Origin: an uncultured Acidobacteriota bacterium
GTDB lineage: Bacteria > Acidobacteriota > Thermoanaerobaculia > Thermoanaerobaculales > Sulfomarinibacteraceae
Direction: 5' to 3'
DNA: 64,000 nucleotides
NCBI GenBank assembly: GCA_963814875.1
Contig: CAWFFJ010000026.1
Coordinates: 82,184-146,183, forward strand
A model generated the notes under the pieces. That model worked only from the letters and a program-made list of their open reading frames with translations, did not search any database and was not told the DNA's origin. Below, in pieces: positions 37,925 to 60,929 of the stretch. Every line of letters starts with the position of its first letter. Positions within the stretch are counted from its first letter, which is position 1. The position numbers and the translations under genes are program-made.

Positions 37925-39352
37925 ATGGACGAACGCATCGCCGAACTTCGTGCCGAGCTGCGGGAGGATCCGACCTCCCGCCTGTTCTATCAGCTCGGTG
38001 AGCTGCTGCGCCGCGAGGAGGCGCATGAGGAGGCGGTGCGCGTGCTGCGCGGCGGCCTCGAGCACAACCCGCGCTACGTCGCCGCCTGGGTCGCGCTCGG
38101 GCGCTCGCTGGCCGCGCTCGAGCGCCACGAGGAGGCCGAGAAGGCCGGCGCGAGGGCCCTCGAGCTCGACCCCGAGAACGCGGTCGCCGCGCGGATGATC
38201 GGCGAGAGTGCAGCCGCCCGCGGTGACCTCGTGCGCGCGATCAAGGGGCTCAAGCTCGCCCGCGTGCTCTCGCCGCGCGACCAGGACCTCGAGGACCGCA
38301 TTGCCGAGGTCGAGGCCGGGCTGGCCAAGCGCGGTCTGCTCGAGGCCCCGGCCCACCGGCATGAGCACTCGGGACCCGTGCCCCGGCTCGGGGCGGATCT
38401 CAGGCCGGGCCCCGGCGGACTGACGACGGTTTCCGTCCGTCGCCTCGAGCTGCCGCCGCTCGAGATGGCCCAGGTCGGGGACGGCGATCCGTTCCTCCTC
38501 GGGCGTACCGGCGACAGCGGGATCTGGCTGCTCGGCGACGACGTCTTCGAGGCGCCCGAGCCGGAACCGGAGCCCGAGGCATTCGGTCCGTCGGACGAGC
38601 CCGTCGAGCCGGACGTGGTCGATCTGCCGGACTGGGAGATTGGCGAGGCGCCGGCCGCCGCCAAGCGGTTCGAGAGTCCGTCCGCAGTCGACGAGCCCCC
38701 GCCAGACTGGGAGGTTGACGACTTCGAACAGCCCGAAGTGCCGATCCCCGACGAGACCGGTGGCTGGGAGGTCGCGACCCCGGTGGCGTGGGCAACGGCT
38801 CCAGAGGCAACCTGGCGACCACAGGAGGTCGTCGGTGAGCTCGAAGCGGCCGGGGAGACTGTCTTCCCAGGAGCCGACCAGCGTGATCTCTCCGGCGAGC
38901 CGGAGCTTCTCGAGGCCGGGCTGGAAACCGCATCGGAGCTTGTCGAGGTTGAGAGCGCCCAGGGCCGCTACGAGGTCGATCCCGGACACGAACTGGAGTC
39001 GGAGTCCGAGCCGCTGTCGGAGAGTGACGAGGAGGAGTGGTCCGAGTTCGAGGAGATCCCTCTGCCGACGTTGACCCTCGCCCGCTTGGCCTACGAGCAG
39101 GGCGATCTTCGGCTCGCGGAGCGCACGTTGCTCGGGGTGCTCGAACGCCAACCGCACTCTGCGGAGGCTCGCGCCCTGCTGGAGCAGATCCGCAGCGAGC
39201 GTTCGCCGGTCCCCACGACGGCTCCCGCGACGGATGAGGCTGCCGCCGCCGCTGAGGCGCAGGAGGTGGCGAGCCCTGCGATCGCGAAGATCGCTGCGTT
39301 GCGTGCGTGGGCGGACACGATTAGACTGGCTGCGGAGCAGCGGCACCCGTGA
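37925..39352 (+). CDS. TPR-repeat protein with a long acidic Pro/Glu/Asp-rich central region
   Basis: Has N-terminal TPRs (AVRVLRGGLEHNPRYVAAWVALGRSLAALERHEEAEKAGARALELDPEN). The acidic middle carries PDWE repeats. A C-terminal TPR is present (LARLAYEQGDLRLAERTLLGVLERQPHSAEA). There is no obvious Shine-Dalgarno. Confidence 0.8.
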   Translation: MDERIAELRAELREDPTSRLFYQLGELLRREEAHEEAVRVLRGGLEHNPRYVAAWVALGRSLAALERHEEAEKAGARALELDPENAVAARMIGESAAARGDLVRAIKGLKLARVLSPRDQDLEDRIAEVEAGLAKRGLLEAPAHRHEHSGPVPRLGADLRPGPGGLTTVSVRRLELPPLEMAQVGDGDPFLLGRTGDSGIWLLGDDVFEAPEPEPEPEAFGPSDEPVEPDVVDLPDWEIGEAPAAAKRFESPSAVDEPPPDWEVDDFEQPEVPIPDETGGWEVATPVAWATAPEATWRPQEVVGELEAAGETVFPGADQRDLSGEPELLEAGLETASELVEVESAQGRYEVDPGHELESESEPLSESDEEEWSEFEEIPLPTLTLARLAYEQGDLRLAERTLLGVLERQPHSAEARALLEQIRSERSPVPTTAPATDEAAAAAEAQEVASPAIAKIAALRAWADTIRLAAEQRHP

Positions 39353-42130: not shown

Positions 42131-42882
42131 GGTATCTGATCCTGAGTGACATCCACGCCAACTGGGAGGCGCTGCACGCGGTGCTCAGCCACGTACGGCG
42201 CAAGCGTTGGGACCATGTTCTGTTCCTCGGCGACGCCGTCGGATACGGTGCGTCGCCGAATCAGGTCCTGGCGTGGCTGCGTGCGGTGCAGCCCCAGGCA
42301 ACCATGGTTCGCGGGAATCACGACCGGGTGTGCGCTGGCCTCGACAGCGGCGAGTACTTCAACCGCTACGCACTCGAGGCCGCCACCTGGACCTACGATC
42401 ATCTCGAGCCGCGCAACCTCGAGCTGCTCAGAGAGCTGCCTGAGGGACCGATCGCGGTCTCCGAGCGGGTCGCCGTGTGCCACGGCTCGCCGGTCGATGA
42501 GGACGCCTACGTGTTCTCGGCCTACGACGCCCAGGCCGCGTTCGACGCTGCGCCACAGCCAGTGATTTTCTTTGGCCACACCCACATTCCGTCGGTGTTC
42601 GTACTGCGACGGGTCAACGGCCGGACCACCCTCCACGCCCGCCTGCTCGCCGGATCGCGCCAGGTGATCGATCTCGACCCTAACAACCGCTACCTCATCA
42701 ACCCCGGCTCGGTCGGCCAACCGCGAGACCGGGACCCGAAGGCCGCTTATGCGATCTACGATGCCGAGCAGCGACGTCTGTTCGCCTACCGGGTGGGCTA
42801 TCGCGTGGGGAACGCCCGACGACGCATCCTCCAGGCGGGCCTGCCCCCCGTCCTCGGGGACCGGCTCCTCTATGGCGCGTGA
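42127..42882 (+). CDS. Metallophosphoesterase (YfcE/MJ0936-like)
   Basis: Contains MRYLILSDIHANWEAL, LFLGDAVGYG, GNHD and GHTH. GTGA overlap with aroK. Confidence 0.85.
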   Translation: MRYLILSDIHANWEALHAVLSHVRRKRWDHVLFLGDAVGYGASPNQVLAWLRAVQPQATMVRGNHDRVCAGLDSGEYFNRYALEAATWTYDHLEPRNLELLRELPEGPIAVSERVAVCHGSPVDEDAYVFSAYDAQAAFDAAPQPVIFFGHTHIPSVFVLRRVNGRTTLHARLLAGSRQVIDLDPNNRYLINPGSVGQPRDRDPKAAYAIYDAEQRRLFAYRVGYRVGNARRRILQAGLPPVLGDRLLYGA

Positions 42883-42895
42883 ACCCAGGGGGTGG

Positions 42896-45295
42896 ATGAT
42901 GACGTCTTGTGTGCGGGCAGTCCTTGGCGCCGCGCTCGCGCTCACAGTCGCTTCTGGAGCAGCGGCACAGGAGGGACGCGCCCTGCTGCGGGCCACCCTG
43001 CTCGAGGCTCTCGACCGTGGTGCCGTCCCCGACGCCCTGTGGGGCGGGCTGCTCCTCGACCCCGAGTCCCAGGTCCGTGTCCTGGCCGTCCGTGTGCTGG
43101 CCTCAAACCCCGGGCACGGCACGGTCCTGCGGCTGGCGATGCTCGCCCAGGATCGCGATCCCCGGGTCCGCGAGGTTGTGATGCTCACGGCGGGTCGGTT
43201 CGGGTCTCCAGCCGTGGAGCTGGCCGGCGCCGCGCTGCACGATCCCTCGCCGCTGGTGCGGCGGGCGGCGGTGTGGGCCTGCACCGAGATCGGAGAGCCG
43301 TGTGCCGACGCGGTCCTCGCTCACATGGCCGTCGAGCGCGACTCGAGCGTCCTTGAGATGGGGTTGGCGAACCTGTGGCGGCTGCCGTCGGGCCGGTGGG
43401 AAGGGACCGCGGGCGGCTTCACGGGACATCGGGACCCCCTGCTGCGTCGCGCTGCGGCGTACGGGCTGTCACGAGGGCGCTCCGAGCTGCGATTGGCGCC
43501 GCTTCGCCGCCTGGCAGCCGACCCGGAGCCGGTCATCCGGCTCACGGCCCTGCGGGGTCTCGGCGGCGACCCGCCGGACCCGTCGGACCTGAAGCGTCTC
43601 GTCGCTGCCCTCGACGATCCCGACTGGCGGGTGCGCGCTGCGGCCTGCCTGGTGCTGGCTGCAACTCCGGCGGAGGTTCCGGAAGGGGCGGATGTCCGGC
43701 TCAGCGAGCTCGCCGCTGATGCTCGAGCGCAGCTCGCGGTACCTGCGGCGCGGGCGCTCGGCGCGAGCCCCGCCCGCGGCGGGGGGAAGGTGCTCACCCT
43801 GCTGGCGCGAGAGGGTGATCCGTGGCCGGCTGCCGAAGCCCTGATCGCGCTCGCGCGCCAGGGCGGAGAGGCCGCCGGCGCCGTGGCCGCCGAGTGGATC
43901 ACGAGTCCGGAGGCGTGGCGCCGCCGAGCTGCCGTCCGCGCGTCCGTTGCTTCCGGCGGGGTCGAGACCAAAGTGGTCGTACGGGCGCTCGAGGACCCCG
44001 ACCCGAGCGTTCGGCTCGCGTTCCTCGATGCCCTGCCCCCGGGCGCTTCGGGCATCGACCGTACGCTTGCCGATCGGCTCGCCCGCGACCAGGATCCGGC
44101 GGTGCGGGCGAGCCTCATCGACCGGCTCGCGGGCGACGGCGCGCTGCCGGCCGAGCGGTTGCTCGGGCTCGCCGCCTCGTGGCACGAGGACGGCGCAGGG
44201 GATGCCCGGGCCGCGGCCCTTCTTGCGGCGTGGAAAGACGGTGACGCGACCGTGCGCGCTAAGGTCCTCAAGGCCGCCCTCGACGACCCGGATCGCGCGG
44301 TGTCGGCACAGGTGGTGGCTGCGGCGCGGGCGGCGGGGGCCGCCGTGGAGCTGCCACCGCGAGCGGCGCCTCACGACCTCTCGTGGTACCGGGGTCTGGT
44401 CACATGGTCCGAACGCGAGCACTGGCTGGACCTGGTGACGGTGCGCGGGACCGTCCGTCTTCGCCTCGAGTCGGCACGCGCTCCCCTGACGGCGCGCGCG
44501 ATCTGGGATCTCGCCGAGAAGGGCTTCTACAACGGGCTCACTTTTCACCGGGTGGTGCCGAACTTCGTGGTCCAGGGCGGCGACCCCCGCGGCGACGGGT
44601 GGGGGGGGCCGGGATTCACCCTCGTCGATGAACCGTCGCTCGAGCCGTTCGACTCGTGGCGGGTCGGGGTTGCGACCTCCGGTCCCAACACCGGCGGCTG
44701 CCAGCTCTTCGCGACCCTGACCCCGGCCGACCACCTCACCGGTCACTATACGAACGTCGCCGAGGTCACCCATGGACGGGATGTTCTGGAGCGGATCGAG
44801 GTCGGCGACGCGATCGTGCGGGTCGAGACCGTGGAGGGGGCCGAGCCGCCGCCCCCGGCGCCGACGCTGCTCGGAGCACTGGCGTGGTCGGATCTTGCAG
44901 GTATCGACGGTTGGGAAACGGAGCGTACGAACTACGTCCCAGACCCGGAGGTGGTGGACCGGCTGCGCACGGCCATAGGCCGCTACCGGATCGTGGTGGT
45001 GCTCGGCTCCTGGTGCGAGGACTCGAAGCGAGAGGTGCCTCGCCTGGAGAAGGTGGTGGATTCGGTCGGGGGCGGCGTCTTCACGGTCGAGCTCGAGGGT
45101 GTCGACAGAAGCAAACGCGTCTCGCCCACCAACCCGGTCGCCGGCCTGCTCCCGGGTCGCACTGCGGACCGGGTGCCGACCCTGGTCGTCCTCGACGCCA
45201 ACGGGCAGGAGCTCGGGCGCGTTGTGGAAACCGCACCGGAGCCGCTCGAGCACCTGCTCGTCGAGCTGATCGGTCCGGCGGAGGGCTGGAGATGA
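42896..45295 (+). CDS. Secreted fusion protein: HEAT repeats + cyclophilin-type peptidyl-prolyl isomerase + thioredoxin-like domain
   Basis: Has a signal peptide (MMTSCVRAVLGAALALTVASGAAAQ) and many DP.P.VR.AA HEAT-like repeats. The cyclophilin core is FYNGLTFHRVVPNFVVQGGDPRGDGWGGPGF. The C-terminal Trx-like segment has WCEDS (45011-45025). Confidence 0.8.
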   Translation: MMTSCVRAVLGAALALTVASGAAAQEGRALLRATLLEALDRGAVPDALWGGLLLDPESQVRVLAVRVLASNPGHGTVLRLAMLAQDRDPRVREVVMLTAGRFGSPAVELAGAALHDPSPLVRRAAVWACTEIGEPCADAVLAHMAVERDSSVLEMGLANLWRLPSGRWEGTAGGFTGHRDPLLRRAAAYGLSRGRSELRLAPLRRLAADPEPVIRLTALRGLGGDPPDPSDLKRLVAALDDPDWRVRAAACLVLAATPAEVPEGADVRLSELAADARAQLAVPAARALGASPARGGGKVLTLLAREGDPWPAAEALIALARQGGEAAGAVAAEWITSPEAWRRRAAVRASVASGGVETKVVVRALEDPDPSVRLAFLDALPPGASGIDRTLADRLARDQDPAVRASLIDRLAGDGALPAERLLGLAASWHEDGAGDARAAALLAAWKDGDATVRAKVLKAALDDPDRAVSAQVVAAARAAGAAVELPPRAAPHDLSWYRGLVTWSEREHWLDLVTVRGTVRLRLESARAPLTARAIWDLAEKGFYNGLTFHRVVPNFVVQGGDPRGDGWGGPGFTLVDEPSLEPFDSWRVGVATSGPNTGGCQLFATLTPADHLTGHYTNVAEVTHGRDVLERIEVGDAIVRVETVEGAEPPPPAPTLLGALAWSDLAGIDGWETERTNYVPDPEVVDRLRTAIGRYRIVVVLGSWCEDSKREVPRLEKVVDSVGGGVFTVELEGVDRSKRVSPTNPVAGLLPGRTADRVPTLVVLDANGQELGRVVETAPEPLEHLLVELIGPAEGWR

Positions 45296-46263
45296 CCCAA
45301 CGCCGCGAGGTCGCCGTGACCTCGCCGCTGCCGGGCCGTGCGGTTGAGCGCCTCGAGGCCTCGCACAGGGTCCGGCTCCACGAGGGGTCGCCCCTCGTCG
45401 ATCCCGGCGACCTCGCCGAGTTCATCGGCGGGGCGCAGGGCGTGGTGACCTTGCTCGCCAACCCGGTCACCGAAGCCGTGCTCTCGGCCTGCCCGTACCT
45501 CGAGGTGGTCGGGAACTGCGCCGTCGGCTACGACAACGTCGACATCGACGCTGCCTGCCGCCGCGGGGTGTGGGTGACCAACACCCCCAACGTCCTGACC
45601 GAGGCCACGGCCGACCTCACCTGGGCACTGATCCTGGCCGTGACACGGCGCATCGTCGAGGCCGATGGTCTGGTGCGTGCTGGGCGCTTCATGGGCTGGC
45701 GACTGGACCTGCTCCTCGGCCGCGGACTGCAGGGCCAGACCCTCGGGGTCGTCGGGTGGGGACGCATCGGCCGCGCGGTCGCCAGACGAGCGCTCGTCTT
45801 CGGCATGAAGGTGGTCTTCGCGACTCCATCCCCACCTCCGGAGCCCGAGCCGCCGGCCCGCGCGGTGGCCCTCGACGAGCTGCTCGCCGCGAGCACCGTG
45901 GTCTCCCTGCACTGCCCGCTGACGCCCGCGACCCGCCATCTGCTCGACCATACCCGGCTCGCGCAGATGCGGCCTGGCGCCGTGCTCGTGAACACCTCGC
46001 GGGGACCACTGGTGGACGAGGATGCCCTCGTTGCAGCCCTCGCCTCGGGCCACCTCGGTGGCGCCGGCCTCGACGTCTACGAGCACGAGCCGACGGTGCA
46101 TCCCGGGCTCCTGGGTCGAGCCGACGTCGTCCTCCTGCCCCACATCGGCTCGGCGACCTCCGAAACCCGCGCCGCCATGGCTGAGCTCGCCGCCGACAAT
46201 GTTCGCGCCGTGCTCGCTGGAGAAGAGCCGCCGACACCGGTGGTCCGAGGACGCATGGCGTGA
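45292..46263 (+). CDS. D-isomer-specific 2-hydroxyacid dehydrogenase (glyoxylate/hydroxypyruvate reductase-like)
   Basis: Has the NAD motif LGVVGWGRIGRAVARRA and LVNTSRGPLVDEDALVAAL...LDVYEHEP, plus HIGSAT. ATGA overlap with the upstream gene. Confidence 0.88.
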   Translation: MTQRREVAVTSPLPGRAVERLEASHRVRLHEGSPLVDPGDLAEFIGGAQGVVTLLANPVTEAVLSACPYLEVVGNCAVGYDNVDIDAACRRGVWVTNTPNVLTEATADLTWALILAVTRRIVEADGLVRAGRFMGWRLDLLLGRGLQGQTLGVVGWGRIGRAVARRALVFGMKVVFATPSPPPEPEPPARAVALDELLAASTVVSLHCPLTPATRHLLDHTRLAQMRPGAVLVNTSRGPLVDEDALVAALASGHLGGAGLDVYEHEPTVHPGLLGRADVVLLPHIGSATSETRAAMAELAADNVRAVLAGEEPPTPVVRGRMA

Positions 46264-46269
46264 CCCCTG

Positions 46270-46432
46270 GAGGCCCGGCCGGGAACCCCCCGCGAAGCGA
46301 GAATCGCGAGGAGGCGTGAGATGTGGCGCCGGAAGGGCGCAGATGTAGTCCTTCTACTTCAAGAACTTCCGGCGCCGCAGATTGCACCTCATTCGCGATT
46401 CGCAGCCGTGAGGAGGTTTCCGGCCGGGCCTC
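46270..46432. repeat. 163-nt intergenic nested inverted repeat: a candidate structured RNA or MITE-like element
   Basis: Three perfect complementary blocks in nested order. 46270-46282 pairs with 46420-46432 (13 bp), 46301-46309 with 46393-46401 (9 bp), and 46325-46335 with 46366-46376 (11 bp). They are separated by size-matched internal loops (18/18 and 15/16 nt), with a 30-nt AT-richer apical loop. Confidence 0.55.
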
Positions 46433-46538
46433 TGGGAGCGCGTACCGCAGAGCCCCATGAAGGGGATCCAGAAGGCGGCCGCATTGCACGGGCTCAACGG
46501 TACGTGCTGCTTGGGATGCGCCTGGATTGCCGACTCTT

Positions 46539-46547
46539 TGCTAGAAT
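46539..46547 (+). promoter_or_regulatory. Candidate extended -10 (TGcTAGAAT) 6 nt before ATG 46554, in a leaderless arrangement
   Basis: Reads TTTGCTAGAAT-ctgcac-ATG. There is no Shine-Dalgarno. Confidence 0.4.
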
Positions 46548-46553
46548 CTGCAC

Positions 46554-47327
46554 ATGGAGCAAGAGTTGGCTGATGCCCCGCCCGCAGCCGCTGCGATGAC
46601 CGCCCCCGATGAGCTCACAGTGCCCCCCCCGGCGACGCGCCCGATCCGCGAGCTGTCGGTAGTGATGCCGGCCCACAACGAGCAGGAGATTCTGCCGGAG
46701 TCGCTGGCGGAGGCGGTCGCGGCGCTGGACGCTCTGTGCGACACCTGGGAGTTGATCGTGGTCGACGACGGATCGACCGACCGCACGCCGGAGATCCTCG
46801 AGGAGTGGAGTCGCCGCGATCCGCGCGTGCGCGCGCTGCCCCTTCGGCCCCAGAAAGGCTACTCCAAAGCGATCGTGGCCGGCGTCGAGGCGACGCGCTA
46901 CCTCACGGTCTTCTACACCGACGCGGATGCCCAGTTCGACCTCCGCGAGATCATCGAGCTCTATCCGTGGCTGCGCGATGTCGACATGGTCGCCGGCTAC
47001 CGGCTCGATCGCCGGGACCCCTGGACCCGGCGTTTCGCGTCCGGCGTTTACAACCGAATCCAGGCCTGGGCGCTCGGGCTGCGGGGGGTGCGTGACGTCA
47101 ATTGCGCCTTCAAGCTGTTCCGCCGCTCGTTCTTCGAGCTTGTCACCCTGACCAGCGGTGGCTTCCTGATCGACGCCGAGATGTTCGCGCGCGCCTCTCG
47201 CGCCGGCCTTCGCTGGACGCAGGTCGGAGTGACCCACCGTCCGCGCACCCGTGGCAGCTCGACGGTGAGAGCTCGCACTGTCTCCGAGACCCTGCGCGAG
47301 CTACGCAGCCTCCGCCGCAGCCTGTAA
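46554..47327 (+). CDS. Family 2 glycosyltransferase (polyprenyl-phosphate sugar synthase-like)
   Basis: Contains LSVVMPAHNEQEIL...LIVVDDGSTDRT and a DAD motif (FYTDADAQFD). Confidence 0.88.
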   Translation: MEQELADAPPAAAAMTAPDELTVPPPATRPIRELSVVMPAHNEQEILPESLAEAVAALDALCDTWELIVVDDGSTDRTPEILEEWSRRDPRVRALPLRPQKGYSKAIVAGVEATRYLTVFYTDADAQFDLREIIELYPWLRDVDMVAGYRLDRRDPWTRRFASGVYNRIQAWALGLRGVRDVNCAFKLFRRSFFELVTLTSGGFLIDAEMFARASRAGLRWTQVGVTHRPRTRGSSTVRARTVSETLRELRSLRRSL

Positions 47328-47344: not shown

Positions 47345-48847
47345 ATGACACTGCACCGCGAGACCGCCTCCGATCGCTGGTTGTTCGCGGCCGTCGTGGT
47401 GGTCAGCGTTGCACTGCATGCGTGGCTCGCCGCCGCGTTGCCGCTGTCGGGCGATGAAGCCTACTACTGGGACTGCGCTCGGCACCTTGACTGGGCCTAC
47501 TTCGACCAGCCGGGTCTGGTGATCTGGCCGATCCAGCTCGCCCGTGCGCTGCTCGGAGACACCGCGCTTGCGGTGCGCTCGCCGGCGGTTCTCGCGAGCC
47601 TACTGTCCGCGCTCTTCCTGCTGCCGTTGGTGCGGCGCCTGGGCGGTGGCGCCCGCCAGGCGGCGGCTGCCGTCATGCTGCTGCACGTGATGCCGGCCTA
47701 CTTCTTCGGTGCCTTCTACGAGTCGACCGATGCCGGAATGATGGCGGCCTGGATCGGGGCGACGTGGGCGGCGGTGGCCCTGGCACAGGGCGAGCGACGG
47801 GCGTGGTGGGGGTTCGGCCTCGCGATCGGCCTCGGTTTCCTGGCGAAGTTCCCGATCGTCCTCGTGCTGCCGGCGCTGGTCCCGGCGCTGTGGGTGCCGG
47901 CGGTGCGCCGCCAGCTGGCGACGGTGACGCCGTGGCTCGCGGCGGCGATGTCCGTCGTGCTCACCGCTCCGGTGTGGATATGGGCGGAGCTCCACAGCTG
48001 GGACAACATCCGCTTCCAGCTCTCCGGGCGCCACGAGACCCACGCCTTCACTCTCCGCTTCCTGGGCGAGTTTGTCGCCGCCAACCTCGCCCTCGCGACG
48101 CCCTTTCTCGTGGCGGCTCTGGCGGTGGCCTGGTGGCGCGGCTGGCGGCGGTGCGACCCCGGATGGCGGGTGTTCCTGGTCGCCTCGGCATCGCCGCTGG
48201 TCGTCTTCGGCCTGGTGTCGCTGCGCGAGCGGGTCGGTGGGCACTGGGGCGTGCCCGGGCTGGTGGTGGCGGTGGCAGCGCTGGTGCTGGTCGAGTTCCG
48301 CGGCCGCCGGACACTGGTCGCCCTCGGCGCGGCGTTCGGACTTGTGCTGTCGCTGGCGCTGGTCGTGGCCGCCCTCCATCCGGAGCGACTGCTCGGGCTC
48401 CAGGTGCACCTTGCCGGCCGGACTCTCGAGGTGCCCGAGCGGCCGGTCGCGATGGCCTTCGGCTACCGCGAGGTGGCGGCGGACCTCGAGACCCGCCTGG
48501 CCCCTGGAGAGTGGGTCGCCTGCGAGAGCTACACCACGGTCCACCTCCTCGCGTTCCGCTCCGGCGGCCGCCTCCCGGTTCTGCTCGCGCGGCTGACTGG
48601 CGGCCGCCACGGGCTCGCGGCGCTGTACTGGCACCGGCCCGAGGCGCTTGAAGGCCGTGACGTGCTCTTCGTCACCGAGCGCGAGGGACTCGAAGACCGG
48701 CTCGCCGGTCTGTTCGCATCGGTCGAGGAGGAGGCGCCGATCGAGGTGCGCGTCGGCGGCCGGGTGATCCGGACCTTTCGGGTGCTGCGCTGCCGTGACC
48801 TCCTGCACCCGGAGGGTGTCTTCACCCTCCTGCCCAAGAGCGCCTGA
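47345..48847 (+). CDS. Family 39 (ArnT/PMT-like) membrane glycosyltransferase
   Basis: Polytopic membrane protein with the first-loop motif LSGDEAYYWDCARHLDWAYFDQPG. It is paired with the upstream GT2. Confidence 0.85.
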   Translation: MTLHRETASDRWLFAAVVVVSVALHAWLAAALPLSGDEAYYWDCARHLDWAYFDQPGLVIWPIQLARALLGDTALAVRSPAVLASLLSALFLLPLVRRLGGGARQAAAAVMLLHVMPAYFFGAFYESTDAGMMAAWIGATWAAVALAQGERRAWWGFGLAIGLGFLAKFPIVLVLPALVPALWVPAVRRQLATVTPWLAAAMSVVLTAPVWIWAELHSWDNIRFQLSGRHETHAFTLRFLGEFVAANLALATPFLVAALAVAWWRGWRRCDPGWRVFLVASASPLVVFGLVSLRERVGGHWGVPGLVVAVAALVLVEFRGRRTLVALGAAFGLVLSLALVVAALHPERLLGLQVHLAGRTLEVPERPVAMAFGYREVAADLETRLAPGEWVACESYTTVHLLAFRSGGRLPVLLARLTGGRHGLAALYWHRPEALEGRDVLFVTEREGLEDRLAGLFASVEEEAPIEVRVGGRVIRTFRVLRCRDLLHPEGVFTLLPKSA

Positions 48848-52186: not shown

Positions 52187-52984
52187 ATGCCCGAGACACG
52201 TTCCGAGGGAGTCCGTATCGCCTACCGCGACGAGGGCTCCGACCACCCGGTATTGCTGTTGCACGGCCACACCATGGACGGCCGCGCATGGGACGGCCTG
52301 GTCGAGCCGCTGACCAGAGCTGGGATGCGGCTGTTGCGGCCGGATCTGCGGGGTCATGGCGCCAGCGAGCGGCCGCCCGGGGGCTACCACTGGAGCCACC
52401 ACGGTACCGACATGGCTGCCGTTCTCGATGCCGCCGGCGTTGCGCGCGCGATCGTGGTCGGCTTCTCGCTCGGCGGAGGGGTAGCCCTCGAGCTCGCGCT
52501 GACTCGACCCGAGCGCGTCGAAGCGCTGGTTCTGATCGACCCCGTGATGCCCGATCGACCGTTCGAGGCTGCCTTCATGGACAACCTCCGGCAGGTGGCG
52601 CGGACGGCGCGCACGGAGGGCATCCGCGCGGCGATGGCCGGTCCCTGGATGGCGAGCCCGCTGTTTGCGGCATCGTTCGAGGCACCTGGGGTACGTGAGG
52701 CGACACAGGCGATCGTCGCCGACTTCCCGGGTGCGGAGTACCTCGCGAGCGAGCGCGACACGGTCGAACGCGGGTGGCGGACGCCGGACCGGCTGGCGGA
52801 GATCACGGTGCCGACCCTGGTCCTGGTCGGAGAGCGGGACATGCCCGGGTTCCGCGCGTTCGCGGAGGAGGCCGCTGCCGGCATTCCGGGGGCTTGCCTG
52901 GAGGTCGTGCCGGGGGCCGGTCACCTGGTCCCCCTCGAGCGGCCCGACCTCGTCGCCGAGCGCATTCTGACCATCGCGGAATGA
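52187..52984 (+). CDS. Alpha/beta-fold hydrolase
   Basis: Contains PVLLLHGHTMDGRAW and the nucleophile elbow GFSLGG. The C-terminal GAGHLVPLERP carries the catalytic His. Confidence 0.88.
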   Translation: MPETRSEGVRIAYRDEGSDHPVLLLHGHTMDGRAWDGLVEPLTRAGMRLLRPDLRGHGASERPPGGYHWSHHGTDMAAVLDAAGVARAIVVGFSLGGGVALELALTRPERVEALVLIDPVMPDRPFEAAFMDNLRQVARTARTEGIRAAMAGPWMASPLFAASFEAPGVREATQAIVADFPGAEYLASERDTVERGWRTPDRLAEITVPTLVLVGERDMPGFRAFAEEAAAGIPGACLEVVPGAGHLVPLERPDLVAERILTIAE

Positions 52985-53121
52985 ACCACAGAGGCACAGA
53001 GACACAGAGAAACACAGAGGGCTCCCGTCCGATGCCTCGCCGTGTGCCCGTGCCCCAGCACGGGCACACGGCGAGGCGTCTCGGGTGGGAGGGGGTTCTG
53101 TGCCTCTGTGCCTCTGTGGTT
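52984..53121. repeat. 138-nt near-perfect palindrome with CACAGAG heptad repeats: a REP/MITE-like element or bidirectional terminator
   Basis: The outer arms are AACCACAGAGGCACAGAG (52984-53001) and CTCTGTGCCTCTGTGGTT (53104-53121), an 18-bp perfect pairing. The inner stem, 53034-53052 with 53059-53077, is a 19-bp perfect pairing with loop CCCCAG. CACAGAG occurs 4 times on the left arm, and CTCTGTG occurs twice on the right arm with a variant TTCTGTG. Confidence 0.8.
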
Positions 53122-53131
53122 TGCCTGTCCG

Positions 53132-54463
53132 TCAGGCGAGGGCTCGGCGCAGGCTGTCCGCCAGGCGGGCCGCGAGGATCTCGATCTCGAGCGCGTCCTC
53201 ACCCTCGATCATCACCCGGGCAAGAGCCTCCGTGCCCGAGTAGCGCAGCAGGATCCGGCCGCGGCCCTCGAGCCTGCTCTGCCCGCCGACGAGCTCGGCT
53301 CGGACCTCCGGCAGCTGGTCGAACGGGGTCTTGCGCGCGACCGGGACGTTGACCAGCACCTGCGGCATCCGTTCGAGGTCGGACAGAGTGCCGAGGCTGC
53401 GCCCAGTGGCCGCCGCGAGGGCGAGCATGTGGGTGGCGGTGACGAGCCCGTCCCCGGTGACCGAGTGGTGCGCGCAGATCACGTGGCCCGACTGCTCGCC
53501 GCCGAGGGCGACGCCGTGCTCACGCATCGCGAGCCACACCGAGCGGTCGCCAACGGGACAGCGCTCGACGGCGATGCCGTCACGGGCGAGCGCCCGCTCG
53601 AGACCGAAGTTGCTCATCACGGTTGCTACCAGCCGGCGGCCTGGAAGTCTCTCCGCGGCGAGCAGGTGGCGGCCCCATGCGAGCAGGATGTCGTCACCGT
53701 CGAGGGTTTGCCCGTCGGCATCGACCAGAATCGCCCTATCCGCGTCTCCGTCCAGGGCGACGCCAGCATCAGTCCGGTAGTGGTGCACGGCGGCGGCGAC
53801 GTGTTCCGGGCAGGTTGCGCCGCAGCCGTTGTTGATGTTGGTGCCGTCAGGCTTCGAGGCGACCGTGACGACGCGGGCTCCGAGCCGTTCGAAGAGCGTT
53901 TCTGCCAGGCCGGAGGCAGCGCCGTGAGCGGCATCGACTGCAACCGTCAGGCCTTCGAGCGGCCGGTGTCGGTGGTGACTGGCCATCACCAGGTCGAGGT
54001 AACGCTCGGCGAGGTCGCTGTCCCGGGGCGGGAGGTCACGACCGTCGAGTACGGGGGTCTCGTCGAGGCGCTGCTCGAGTCGGCGCTCGACAGCGTCGGC
54101 AATCTTCTCGCCCGACGGCGCGAGGACCTTGATCCCGTTGTCTTGGGAGGGGTTGTGCGACGCCGAGATGACGACTCCAGCGGCCCACGATCCAGTGCGC
54201 AGCAGCTGGGAGACTGCGGGAGTGGGCAGGACACCGCCCCACGTCAGGCGACCGCCAGCCGCTTGGAAGCTGCCTCCGAGCCATGTCGCGAGGGTCTCGG
54301 TGGAGGCGCGGGTGTCGCCGGCGAGCAGCAGGTGTGGCTGATCACGGTTCGAGCCGAGCTCGGCCGCGAGAGCGGCGCCCAGGCGCCGCACCGTCGCCTC
54401 GTCGAGGGGCGGAGCGTACGCAGGCCCGCGGATGCCGTCGGTTCCGAAAAGTCTCAACTTCAT
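53132..54463 (-). CDS. glmM: Phosphoglucosamine mutase
   Basis: Begins MKLRLFGTDGIRG and has the active-site motif ISASHNPSQDNGIK. Confidence 0.92.
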   Translation of the reverse strand: MKLRLFGTDGIRGPAYAPPLDEATVRRLGAALAAELGSNRDQPHLLLAGDTRASTETLATWLGGSFQAAGGRLTWGGVLPTPAVSQLLRTGSWAAGVVISASHNPSQDNGIKVLAPSGEKIADAVERRLEQRLDETPVLDGRDLPPRDSDLAERYLDLVMASHHRHRPLEGLTVAVDAAHGAASGLAETLFERLGARVVTVASKPDGTNINNGCGATCPEHVAAAVHHYRTDAGVALDGDADRAILVDADGQTLDGDDILLAWGRHLLAAERLPGRRLVATVMSNFGLERALARDGIAVERCPVGDRSVWLAMREHGVALGGEQSGHVICAHHSVTGDGLVTATHMLALAAATGRSLGTLSDLERMPQVLVNVPVARKTPFDQLPEVRAELVGGQSRLEGRGRILLRYSGTEALARVMIEGEDALEIEILAARLADSLRRALA

Positions 54464-60854: not shown

Positions 60855-60929
60855 TGGTGGCGGTGGGTGGAATTGAACCACCGACACGGGGCTTATGAGA
60901 CCCCTGCTCTGCCGCTGAGCTACACCGCC
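60855..60929 (-). tRNA. tRNA with anticodon CAU, either elongator Met or the Ile2 lysidine substrate. CCA is encoded.
   Basis: The reverse complement is GGCGGTGTAGCTCAGCGGCAGAGCAGGGGTCTCATAAGCCCCGTGTCGGTGGTTCAATTCCACCCACCGCCACCA. It folds as a cloverleaf with a 7-bp acceptor stem, GTTCAAT T-loop and CTCATAA anticodon loop. The G1-C72 pair argues against an initiator. Confidence 0.88.

Follow-up and report, generated by a model that had tools for sequence, protein, structure and literature searches.

A 163-bp hairpin between a dehydrogenase gene and a glycosyltransferase pair is very probably a polymorphic MITE with IS1182-type ends

A long inverted repeat between two genes raises the question of whether it is a conserved regulator of its neighbours or a mobile element that has settled beside them. 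The question arises here in a stretch of 64 kb (the whole of the DNA analysed, referred to below as the window), in which a co-directional gene row runs from a HEAT/cyclophilin protein through a dehydrogenase and a spacer to a family 2 glycosyltransferase (GT2) and a PMT_2 glycosyltransferase. An earlier sequence-only reading had put the spacer between the dehydrogenase and GT2 at 290 nt, and this is correct, with the dehydrogenase stop codon ending at 46263 and the GT2 ATG at 46554; a 163-bp hairpin begins ~5-7 nt past the dehydrogenase TGA stop codon. The evidence assembled below makes it very probable that this hairpin is a MITE with IS1182-type ends, i.e., a polymorphic insertion after the dehydrogenase gene and not a conserved regulatory RNA. 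The features of the locus are as follows:

42749-45295: HEAT/cyclophilin protein, co-directional with the dehydrogenase
45292-46263, plus strand: D-isomer-specific 2-hydroxyacid dehydrogenase, 323 aa (PF02826, 7.7e-57; PF00389, 9.8e-31)
46268-46269: left copy of the 2-bp target-site duplication, TG, inside CTGG 46267-46270
46270-46432, plus strand: the element, very probably a MITE of family A ("group A") in forward orientation; 163 bp, non-coding, a near-complete hairpin, aligned end to end with 20 other copies
46270-46290, plus strand: left terminal inverted repeat, GAGGCCCGGCCGGGAACCCCC; 21 nt, 90% complementary, the first 13 nt perfectly paired with the right end
46336-46365, plus strand: apical region of the hairpin with a small GTAG/CTAC stem; alignment columns 76-103, mostly invariant among the copies
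46412-46432, plus strand: right terminal inverted repeat, GGAGGTTTCCGGCCGGGCCTC; alignment columns 148-170, invariant or nearly so in 21 copies
46433-46434: right copy of the 2-bp target-site duplication, TG, inside CTGG 46432-46435
46539-46547, plus strand: TGCTAGAAT, a promoter-like motif of the extended -10 type, with its end 6 nt from the GT2 start codon
46554-47327, plus strand: family 2 glycosyltransferase (GT2), downstream of the element
47345-48847: PMT_2 (GT39-like) glycosyltransferase, after GT2

The complementary blocks of the hairpin are just as they had been described. Three nested perfect complementary blocks are present, in which 46270-46282 pairs with 46420-46432 (13 bp), 46301-46309 with 46393-46401 (9 bp) and 46325-46335 with 46366-46376 (11 bp), and the motif GAGGAGG, which was said to lie in both internal-loop regions, occurs on both arms. 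In a repeat finder the outer arms reached 21 nt with 90% complementarity and the inner ones 25 nt with 76%, and with G.U pairs the pairing reaches 46266-46436. The idea of one long imperfect hairpin was borne out by folding: the plus strand of 46264-46440 as RNA gave a single continuous hairpin of -126.9 kcal/mol, compared with a mean of -74.1 for the shuffles (z = -11.0), and none of 200 dinucleotide shuffles was as good, while the minus strand of the hairpin region gave -108.6 kcal/mol (z = -8.7). The structure is real and far beyond chance. The terminal inverted repeats of the 163-bp element read GAGGCCCGGCCGG(G/A)AA, and its apical region is asymmetric, which gives family A a defined orientation. 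The only ORF that starts inside the element (46321-46599) has no Pfam match and an ATG that is not conserved among the copies; as is usual for a MITE, the element is shorter than ~600 bp and has no coding capacity.

Whether the hairpin belongs to this locus was followed in three syntenic loci (L001, L002 and L003), reached through homologues of the GT2 protein. Their dehydrogenase-GT2 spacers measure 111, 49 and 9 nt, respectively, and all three are without the hairpin. L001 (contig_5949 of ERZ25039500) is 96-98% identical to the window at the nucleotide level over ~20 kb, and the alignment of the two breaks at two places only, 46265-46456 and 52987-53132. Where L001 reads GCGTGACCTCTACCAGCGCG, the window reads GCGTGACCCCTG, then the element, then TGGGAGCGCG, so that a close relative holds the empty orthologous site that an insertion would be expected to leave. 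As L001 lacks the element at this level of identity, the element is polymorphic within what is effectively one species. Alternatively, there may have been a precise loss in L001 and not a gain in the window lineage, which would still imply a mobile element. The equal-length internal loops had been taken to mean that the hairpin is conserved at the locus; this does not hold, since the closest relative and two more distant ones are without it.

The same spacers bear on the proposal that the hairpin is a locus-specific structured RNA under selection, either as a cis-regulatory leader of GT2/PMT_2 or as an independent small RNA. The strong fold speaks for such an RNA, as do the compensatory pair changes described further below. 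The orthologous position is, however, empty in three of three relatives, including the one at 96-98% identity, near-identical copies lie beside unrelated genes at unrelated loci, and the element has terminal inverted repeats and a target duplication. Rfam offered no family for it either: at the gathering threshold the only match in the window was a tRNA at 60858-60929, and in the element region a search up to E 10 returned chance microRNA precursor and SRP matches far below threshold. There is no terminator-like site in 45800-47000, the hairpin being followed by TGGGAGCG with no U-tract. The earlier candidate roles of a conserved leader, a small RNA or a 3' UTR element thus fail on the empty orthologous spacers and the lack of an Rfam or terminator match, and a locus-specific RNA is highly improbable.

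The GT2 gene itself appears to have kept its own signals. The candidate promoter at 46539-46547 was correctly placed downstream of the element, and the motif is common to the four loci, as the window and L001-L003 all have the block CTCTTTGCTAGAAT without a change. TGCTAGAAT lies ~105 nt downstream of the element and was left intact by the insertion. A consensus promoter scan found no full sigma-70 site in or beside the element, and a promoter function of TGCTAGAAT is therefore putative. The stretch at 46539-46556 resembles an extended -10 and is the same in four of four syntenic loci, and the gap of 6 nt between the end of TGCTAGAAT and the GT2 ATG suggests a GT2 transcript with no leader or hardly any; in L003 the dehydrogenase coding sequence overlaps the motif with its 3' end. 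Directly downstream of the putative MITE lies another, imperfect hairpin (46437-46455 with 46490-46508, 19-nt arms, 84% complementary), whose 3' arm and loop are common to the window and L001 and in whose 5' arm the window has ~13 extra nt (TACCGCAGAGCCC) compared with L001. The 60-70-nt segment that holds this small hairpin is wholly missing from L002 and L003.

The second break in the alignment with L001, the only other one, coincides with an unrelated nested hairpin of 138 nt (52984-53121), which directly follows the stop codon of an alpha/beta-hydrolase gene. Its outer arms consist of short CACAGAG-type repeats (AACCACAGAGGCACAGAGACACAGA and TCTGTGCCTCTGTGCCTCTGTGGTT) and its 23-bp inner stem is 96% complementary. 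L001 has another sequence in this place, of ~580 nt (L001:16440-17024) and with the repeat ends CACCAAGACACCAAGAC and GTCTTGGTGTCTTGGTG, and similar CACAGAG ends were seen at L002:16764-16841, L009:79-116 and L120:4446-4482. This hairpin looks like a second mobile hairpin family, with ends made of tandem short repeats.

A mobile element should recur, and a search for further copies had been proposed. The 64-kb window yielded no second copy of the element, and end-like partial matches at position 38912 of the window and at L001 2538, with two mismatches and no partner, were taken as chance. Outside the window the search succeeded, with at least 23 further full-length copies of the same family (family A), 73-96% identical, at unrelated loci of Acidobacteriota MAGs and metagenomes. 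GTDB species genomes were scanned for two 12-nt ends separated by 122-152 nt, which gave 29 matches, i.e., 24 hairpin elements and five chance matches in ordinary sequence. Exactly the span of the window element was found in 18 of the 24, and nine belong to family A. One Acidobacteriota MAG carries family A at four loci, 92-96% identical to the window copy; the other hosts are Holophagae, Thermoanaerobaculia and Thermoanaerobaculales MAGs and one MAG labelled Deltaproteobacteria.

In metagenomes, a scan with a single end gave at least 120 matches. Many of the matches listed lie ~100 nt from contig ends, which is expected for a repeat that breaks assemblies. When the arms were clustered, family A was the largest family, with ~27 arms per side among the matches listed, and many further small families with the same ends, of roughly 30, 79, 180, 195, 207 and 272 bp, also appeared among these. 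Other hairpin families with the same ends were found in Planctomycetota (family B), a "delta proteobacterium" MAG (C) and an Actinomycetes MAG (D). Families A-D have identical 16-nt ends and a length of 162-163 bp, and each forms a near-complete hairpin; no homology could be detected between their interiors (z of 2.8 or less, apart from one pair at 4.0). A blastn search of a plasmid collection with the element returned only short matches at chance level, and among viral contigs the end pattern gave only two chance matches, in A+T-rich DNA.

Size variants were seen as well. A second family B copy of 183 nt (L014:682-864) lies 1.3 kb from a 163-nt copy on the same Planctomycetota contig, and there are minimal elements in which the ends stand nearly back to back, at L073:5294-5327 (34 nt), L113:1036-1065 (30 nt) and L043:456-534 (79 nt). 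These minimal elements are still flanked by CTAG, and they are either extreme deletion derivatives or footprints of excision or insertion.

The dispersed copies also bear on a non-mobile origin, in which the hairpin would be a site of recombination or cruciform extrusion, or an inverted duplication that arose locally, in place. Long palindromes can come from template switching and can extrude as cruciforms, and a recombination site was among the candidate roles first listed. Several genomes, however, contain the same sequence at numerous unrelated loci, where its borders are sharp, with the same two end bases and a TA flank, and the same ends bound elements that encode transposases (see below). 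The dispersed copies refute the recombination site, and we regard a non-mobile origin as improbable in the extreme.

The exact borders of the element were read from the flanks of the copies. In nearly all family copies cTA precedes the element and TAg follows it, i.e., TA stands inside CTAG. Beside the AGGCCC core there is a G without exception, with C as its partner in nearly all cases, while the outer flank is sometimes TAA or TAC. Since the terminal G and C are fixed where the outer flank varies, the duplication is TA and the element runs from GAGG to CCTC (163 bp). A 4-bp CTAG duplication of the IS5-like kind was rejected on the same observation, as the core-adjacent base is G or C even beside a TAA or TAC flank. 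The preferred target of the family, to judge from these flanks, is the TA dinucleotide within CTAG. The window copy differs from this usual pattern in having CTGG on both sides and a TG/TG duplication. The arrangement is direct (CTGG...CTGG and not CTGG...CCAG), which identifies it as a duplication and not as an extension of the inverted repeat, so that the window element, too, bears the short direct target-site duplication typical of MITEs.

The TAG stop of an adjacent ORF is, in a number of family A copies, composed of the flanking TA and the element's own terminal G or C, with ORFs called by a crude GC3 rule; examples are L009:5982-5984, L027:2383-2385, L120:7461-7463 and L008:1020-1022. 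The pattern suggests that such copies entered a TAG stop codon at its TA and restored the stop, leaving the gene undamaged.

An element without a transposase has to be moved by another, and candidates for such a partner were found in two metagenome loci. L133:1055-2992 (1938 bp) and L098:610-2595 (1986 bp) have GAGGCCCGGCCGGAAACC at both ends and TA flanks, with one mismatch to GAGGCCCGGCCGGAAACC at the left end of L098, and the first 22 nt of the window element (to 46291) match their ends at 21 of 22 positions. Both elements code for just one protein, of 515 and 516 aa, respectively, with Pfam matches to DUF772, DDE_Tnp_1 and DDE_Tnp_1_6, and the two reach the NCBIfam IS1182 equivalog NF033551 with 271.6 and 284.5 bits against a cut-off of 270. 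Through L133 and L098 the element therefore shares its ends with autonomous, transposase-encoding elements, as a MITE should. At six further loci homologous transposases, ~60% identical to one another, adjoin the same end. This end sequence is thus kept across a diverse transposase clade, which would account for unrelated MITE families in different phyla sharing it. The best plasmid-borne homologues of the partner transposases are annotated as IS1182 family and are at most 34% identical to them, from which we take the partners to form a separate clade.

The partners were found outside the window, and no IS1182-family transposase is encoded within its 64 kb. Among the ~150 loci, no full-length insertion sequence matches the interior of family A beyond ~22 nt; an origin of the interior from a parent insertion sequence by internal deletion was thus not found, a weak negative in a limited sample of ~150 loci. 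Two further candidates for long elements were set aside: the end pairs of L054 and L141, 2.4 kb apart (from a scan for ends 1.6-2.5 kb apart), flank an ordinary gene of 829 aa and do not mark insertion sequences, and L041 is a truncated copy after a glyA-like gene. In the metagenome contig L044:1-2149 a complete 2.06-kb copy of an IS1182-type element stands between the last 52 nt of such an element at the start and the first 34 nt of one at the end, with junctions reading ...CCTC-TA-GGGG..., as would be seen with copies in tandem or abutting, or with a circular form that was assembled.

Among the candidate roles first listed, that of a MITE-like insertion is therefore well supported, by the terminal inverted repeats, the target-site duplication, the dispersed copies, the empty site and the shared ends. 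The element would have inserted by cut-and-paste or copy-in transposition at C-TG-G just past the dehydrogenase stop, and the insertion would have duplicated the central dinucleotide, which is TG here and TA at the usual C-TA-G. Its movement would most likely depend on a DDE transposase of the IS1182 family, supplied in trans and binding to the GAGGCCCGGCCGGAAAC ends, since the insertion sequences of 1.9-2.0 kb share the element's 16-20-bp ends and the CTAG/TA flanks. In the dehydrogenase transcript it would fall within the 3' untranslated region, upstream of the GT2 motif, most likely as a near-neutral passenger that at most may affect mRNA stability or processing.

Why a passenger should keep so complete a hairpin is a question that the copies themselves address. 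An alignment (A3) was made of 21 family A copies from different loci, including that of the window, with 73-96% identity to the window copy and drawn from Acidobacteriota, Holophagae and Thermoanaerobaculia MAGs and from metagenomes. The terminal repeats are invariant or nearly so across all 21. Standard pairs make up 96.4% of the cells, and 12 of 58 pairs are changed on both sides. None of 500 shuffles reached the observed percentage paired or the covariation score, two of 500 reached the number of double-changed pairs, and when the partners were slid by one to three columns only ~40% remained paired. On the strength of these shuffles and slides, the pairing is actively kept among the mobile copies by compensatory changes. 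The covariation that was to be sought in homologous spacers is thus present among the dispersed copies, and it is not found among the orthologous spacers, which lack the element. The hairpin would be kept because it is helpful for transposition or persistence.

Alternatively, the host may have put an element of MITE origin to use as part of the dehydrogenase transcript, in which the hairpin would stabilise the 3' end, be cut by the double-strand RNase RNase III or keep GT2/PMT_2 expression separate from that of the dehydrogenase. With -127 kcal/mol the hairpin is highly stable, and the element stands between genes that in relatives are almost contiguous (spacers of 9-49 nt) and probably co-transcribed. 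Other bacterial MITEs (Correia and ERIC elements) have been reported to alter mRNA processing, which counts in the same direction. In addition, the forward strand folds better, by 10-18 kcal/mol, in 20 of the 21 aligned family A copies, and on this strand G.T appositions outnumber A.C (128 vs 55, or 2.3:1, in an arm-to-arm count), as might be seen if the RNA were under selection. The same count, however, gave no such asymmetry in families B and C, and the orientation of copies relative to neighbouring genes is mixed, by a crude ORF-based estimate. With an asymmetry of 2.3:1 in family A only, and with mixed orientation, selection at the RNA level was not adopted. The insertion is, moreover, polymorphic within effectively one species, no U-tract makes it a terminator, and GT2 retains its own conserved promoter-like motif downstream of the element. 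Host use is therefore considered quite unlikely, and the reading as a near-neutral MITE is preferred.

A further possibility concerns the MITE itself, namely that a fold-back single-stranded form, as DNA or RNA and of defined length, is a required intermediate or cofactor for this IS1182 clade. Families A-D have interiors that cannot be aligned and yet identical 16-nt ends, a length of 162-163 bp and a hairpin each, and with the compensatory changes in family A this suggests that the fold-back form may be required. Such a requirement is rather unlikely; if true, it would be a new mechanistic feature for MITEs of DDE transposases, and the hairpin would be more than a by-product of joined ends.

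For this locus, the outcome is that the hairpin is a false lead as a conserved regulator of the GT2/PMT_2 glycosylation genes. As a recent, strain-specific insertion, it is a useful strain marker and a caution for annotation. The wider picture is of an abundant MITE superfamily in uncultured soil and sediment bacteria, tied by identical ends to one clade of IS1182-family transposases. Specialists in mobile elements may find it of interest for the assembly breaks, for the insertion at CTAG and TAG stops and for a whole-length hairpin that is kept by compensatory change. In the literature searched, the end sequence was not found as a string, and no description of this family was found in the literature on MITEs and IS1182. 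The MITE family and its link to the IS1182 clade are thus apparently undescribed, while the kind of element is well known, and nothing in the findings challenges current understanding.

Bacterial MITEs with a TA duplication and a hairpin over their whole length include Correia in Neisseria, RUP in Streptococcus pneumoniae and Nezha in cyanobacteria. Like these, the window family combines a length of 100-200 bp, terminal inverted repeats, a TA duplication and a long fold-back; it is likewise intergenic, often beside gene ends, present in many copies and polymorphic for presence or absence between strains. It differs from them in its unrelated end sequence (GAGGCCCGGCCGGAAA), in its hosts, which are Acidobacteriota and other high-G+C soil and sediment phyla, and in sharing its ends with IS1182-family and not with IS630/Tc1-mariner-type elements. 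ISMgi3 of Mycolicibacterium gilvum, which is IS1182-like, is also bounded by CTAG, and its inverted repeats start with GGAGAC; unlike the insertion sequences of the IS1182 family, the window element has 163 bp and no transposase. With REP/BIME and ERIC sequences it shares the character of a dispersed intergenic palindrome that is able to fold in mRNA. REP sequences, however, are 20-40 nt long with a GTAG or CGTC head, make no target duplication and are linked to RAYT (Y1) transposases, whereas the window element has 163 bp, terminal inverted repeats of 13-21 bp, a TA/TG duplication, the ends GAGGCC...GGCCTC and partners that encode DDE transposases.
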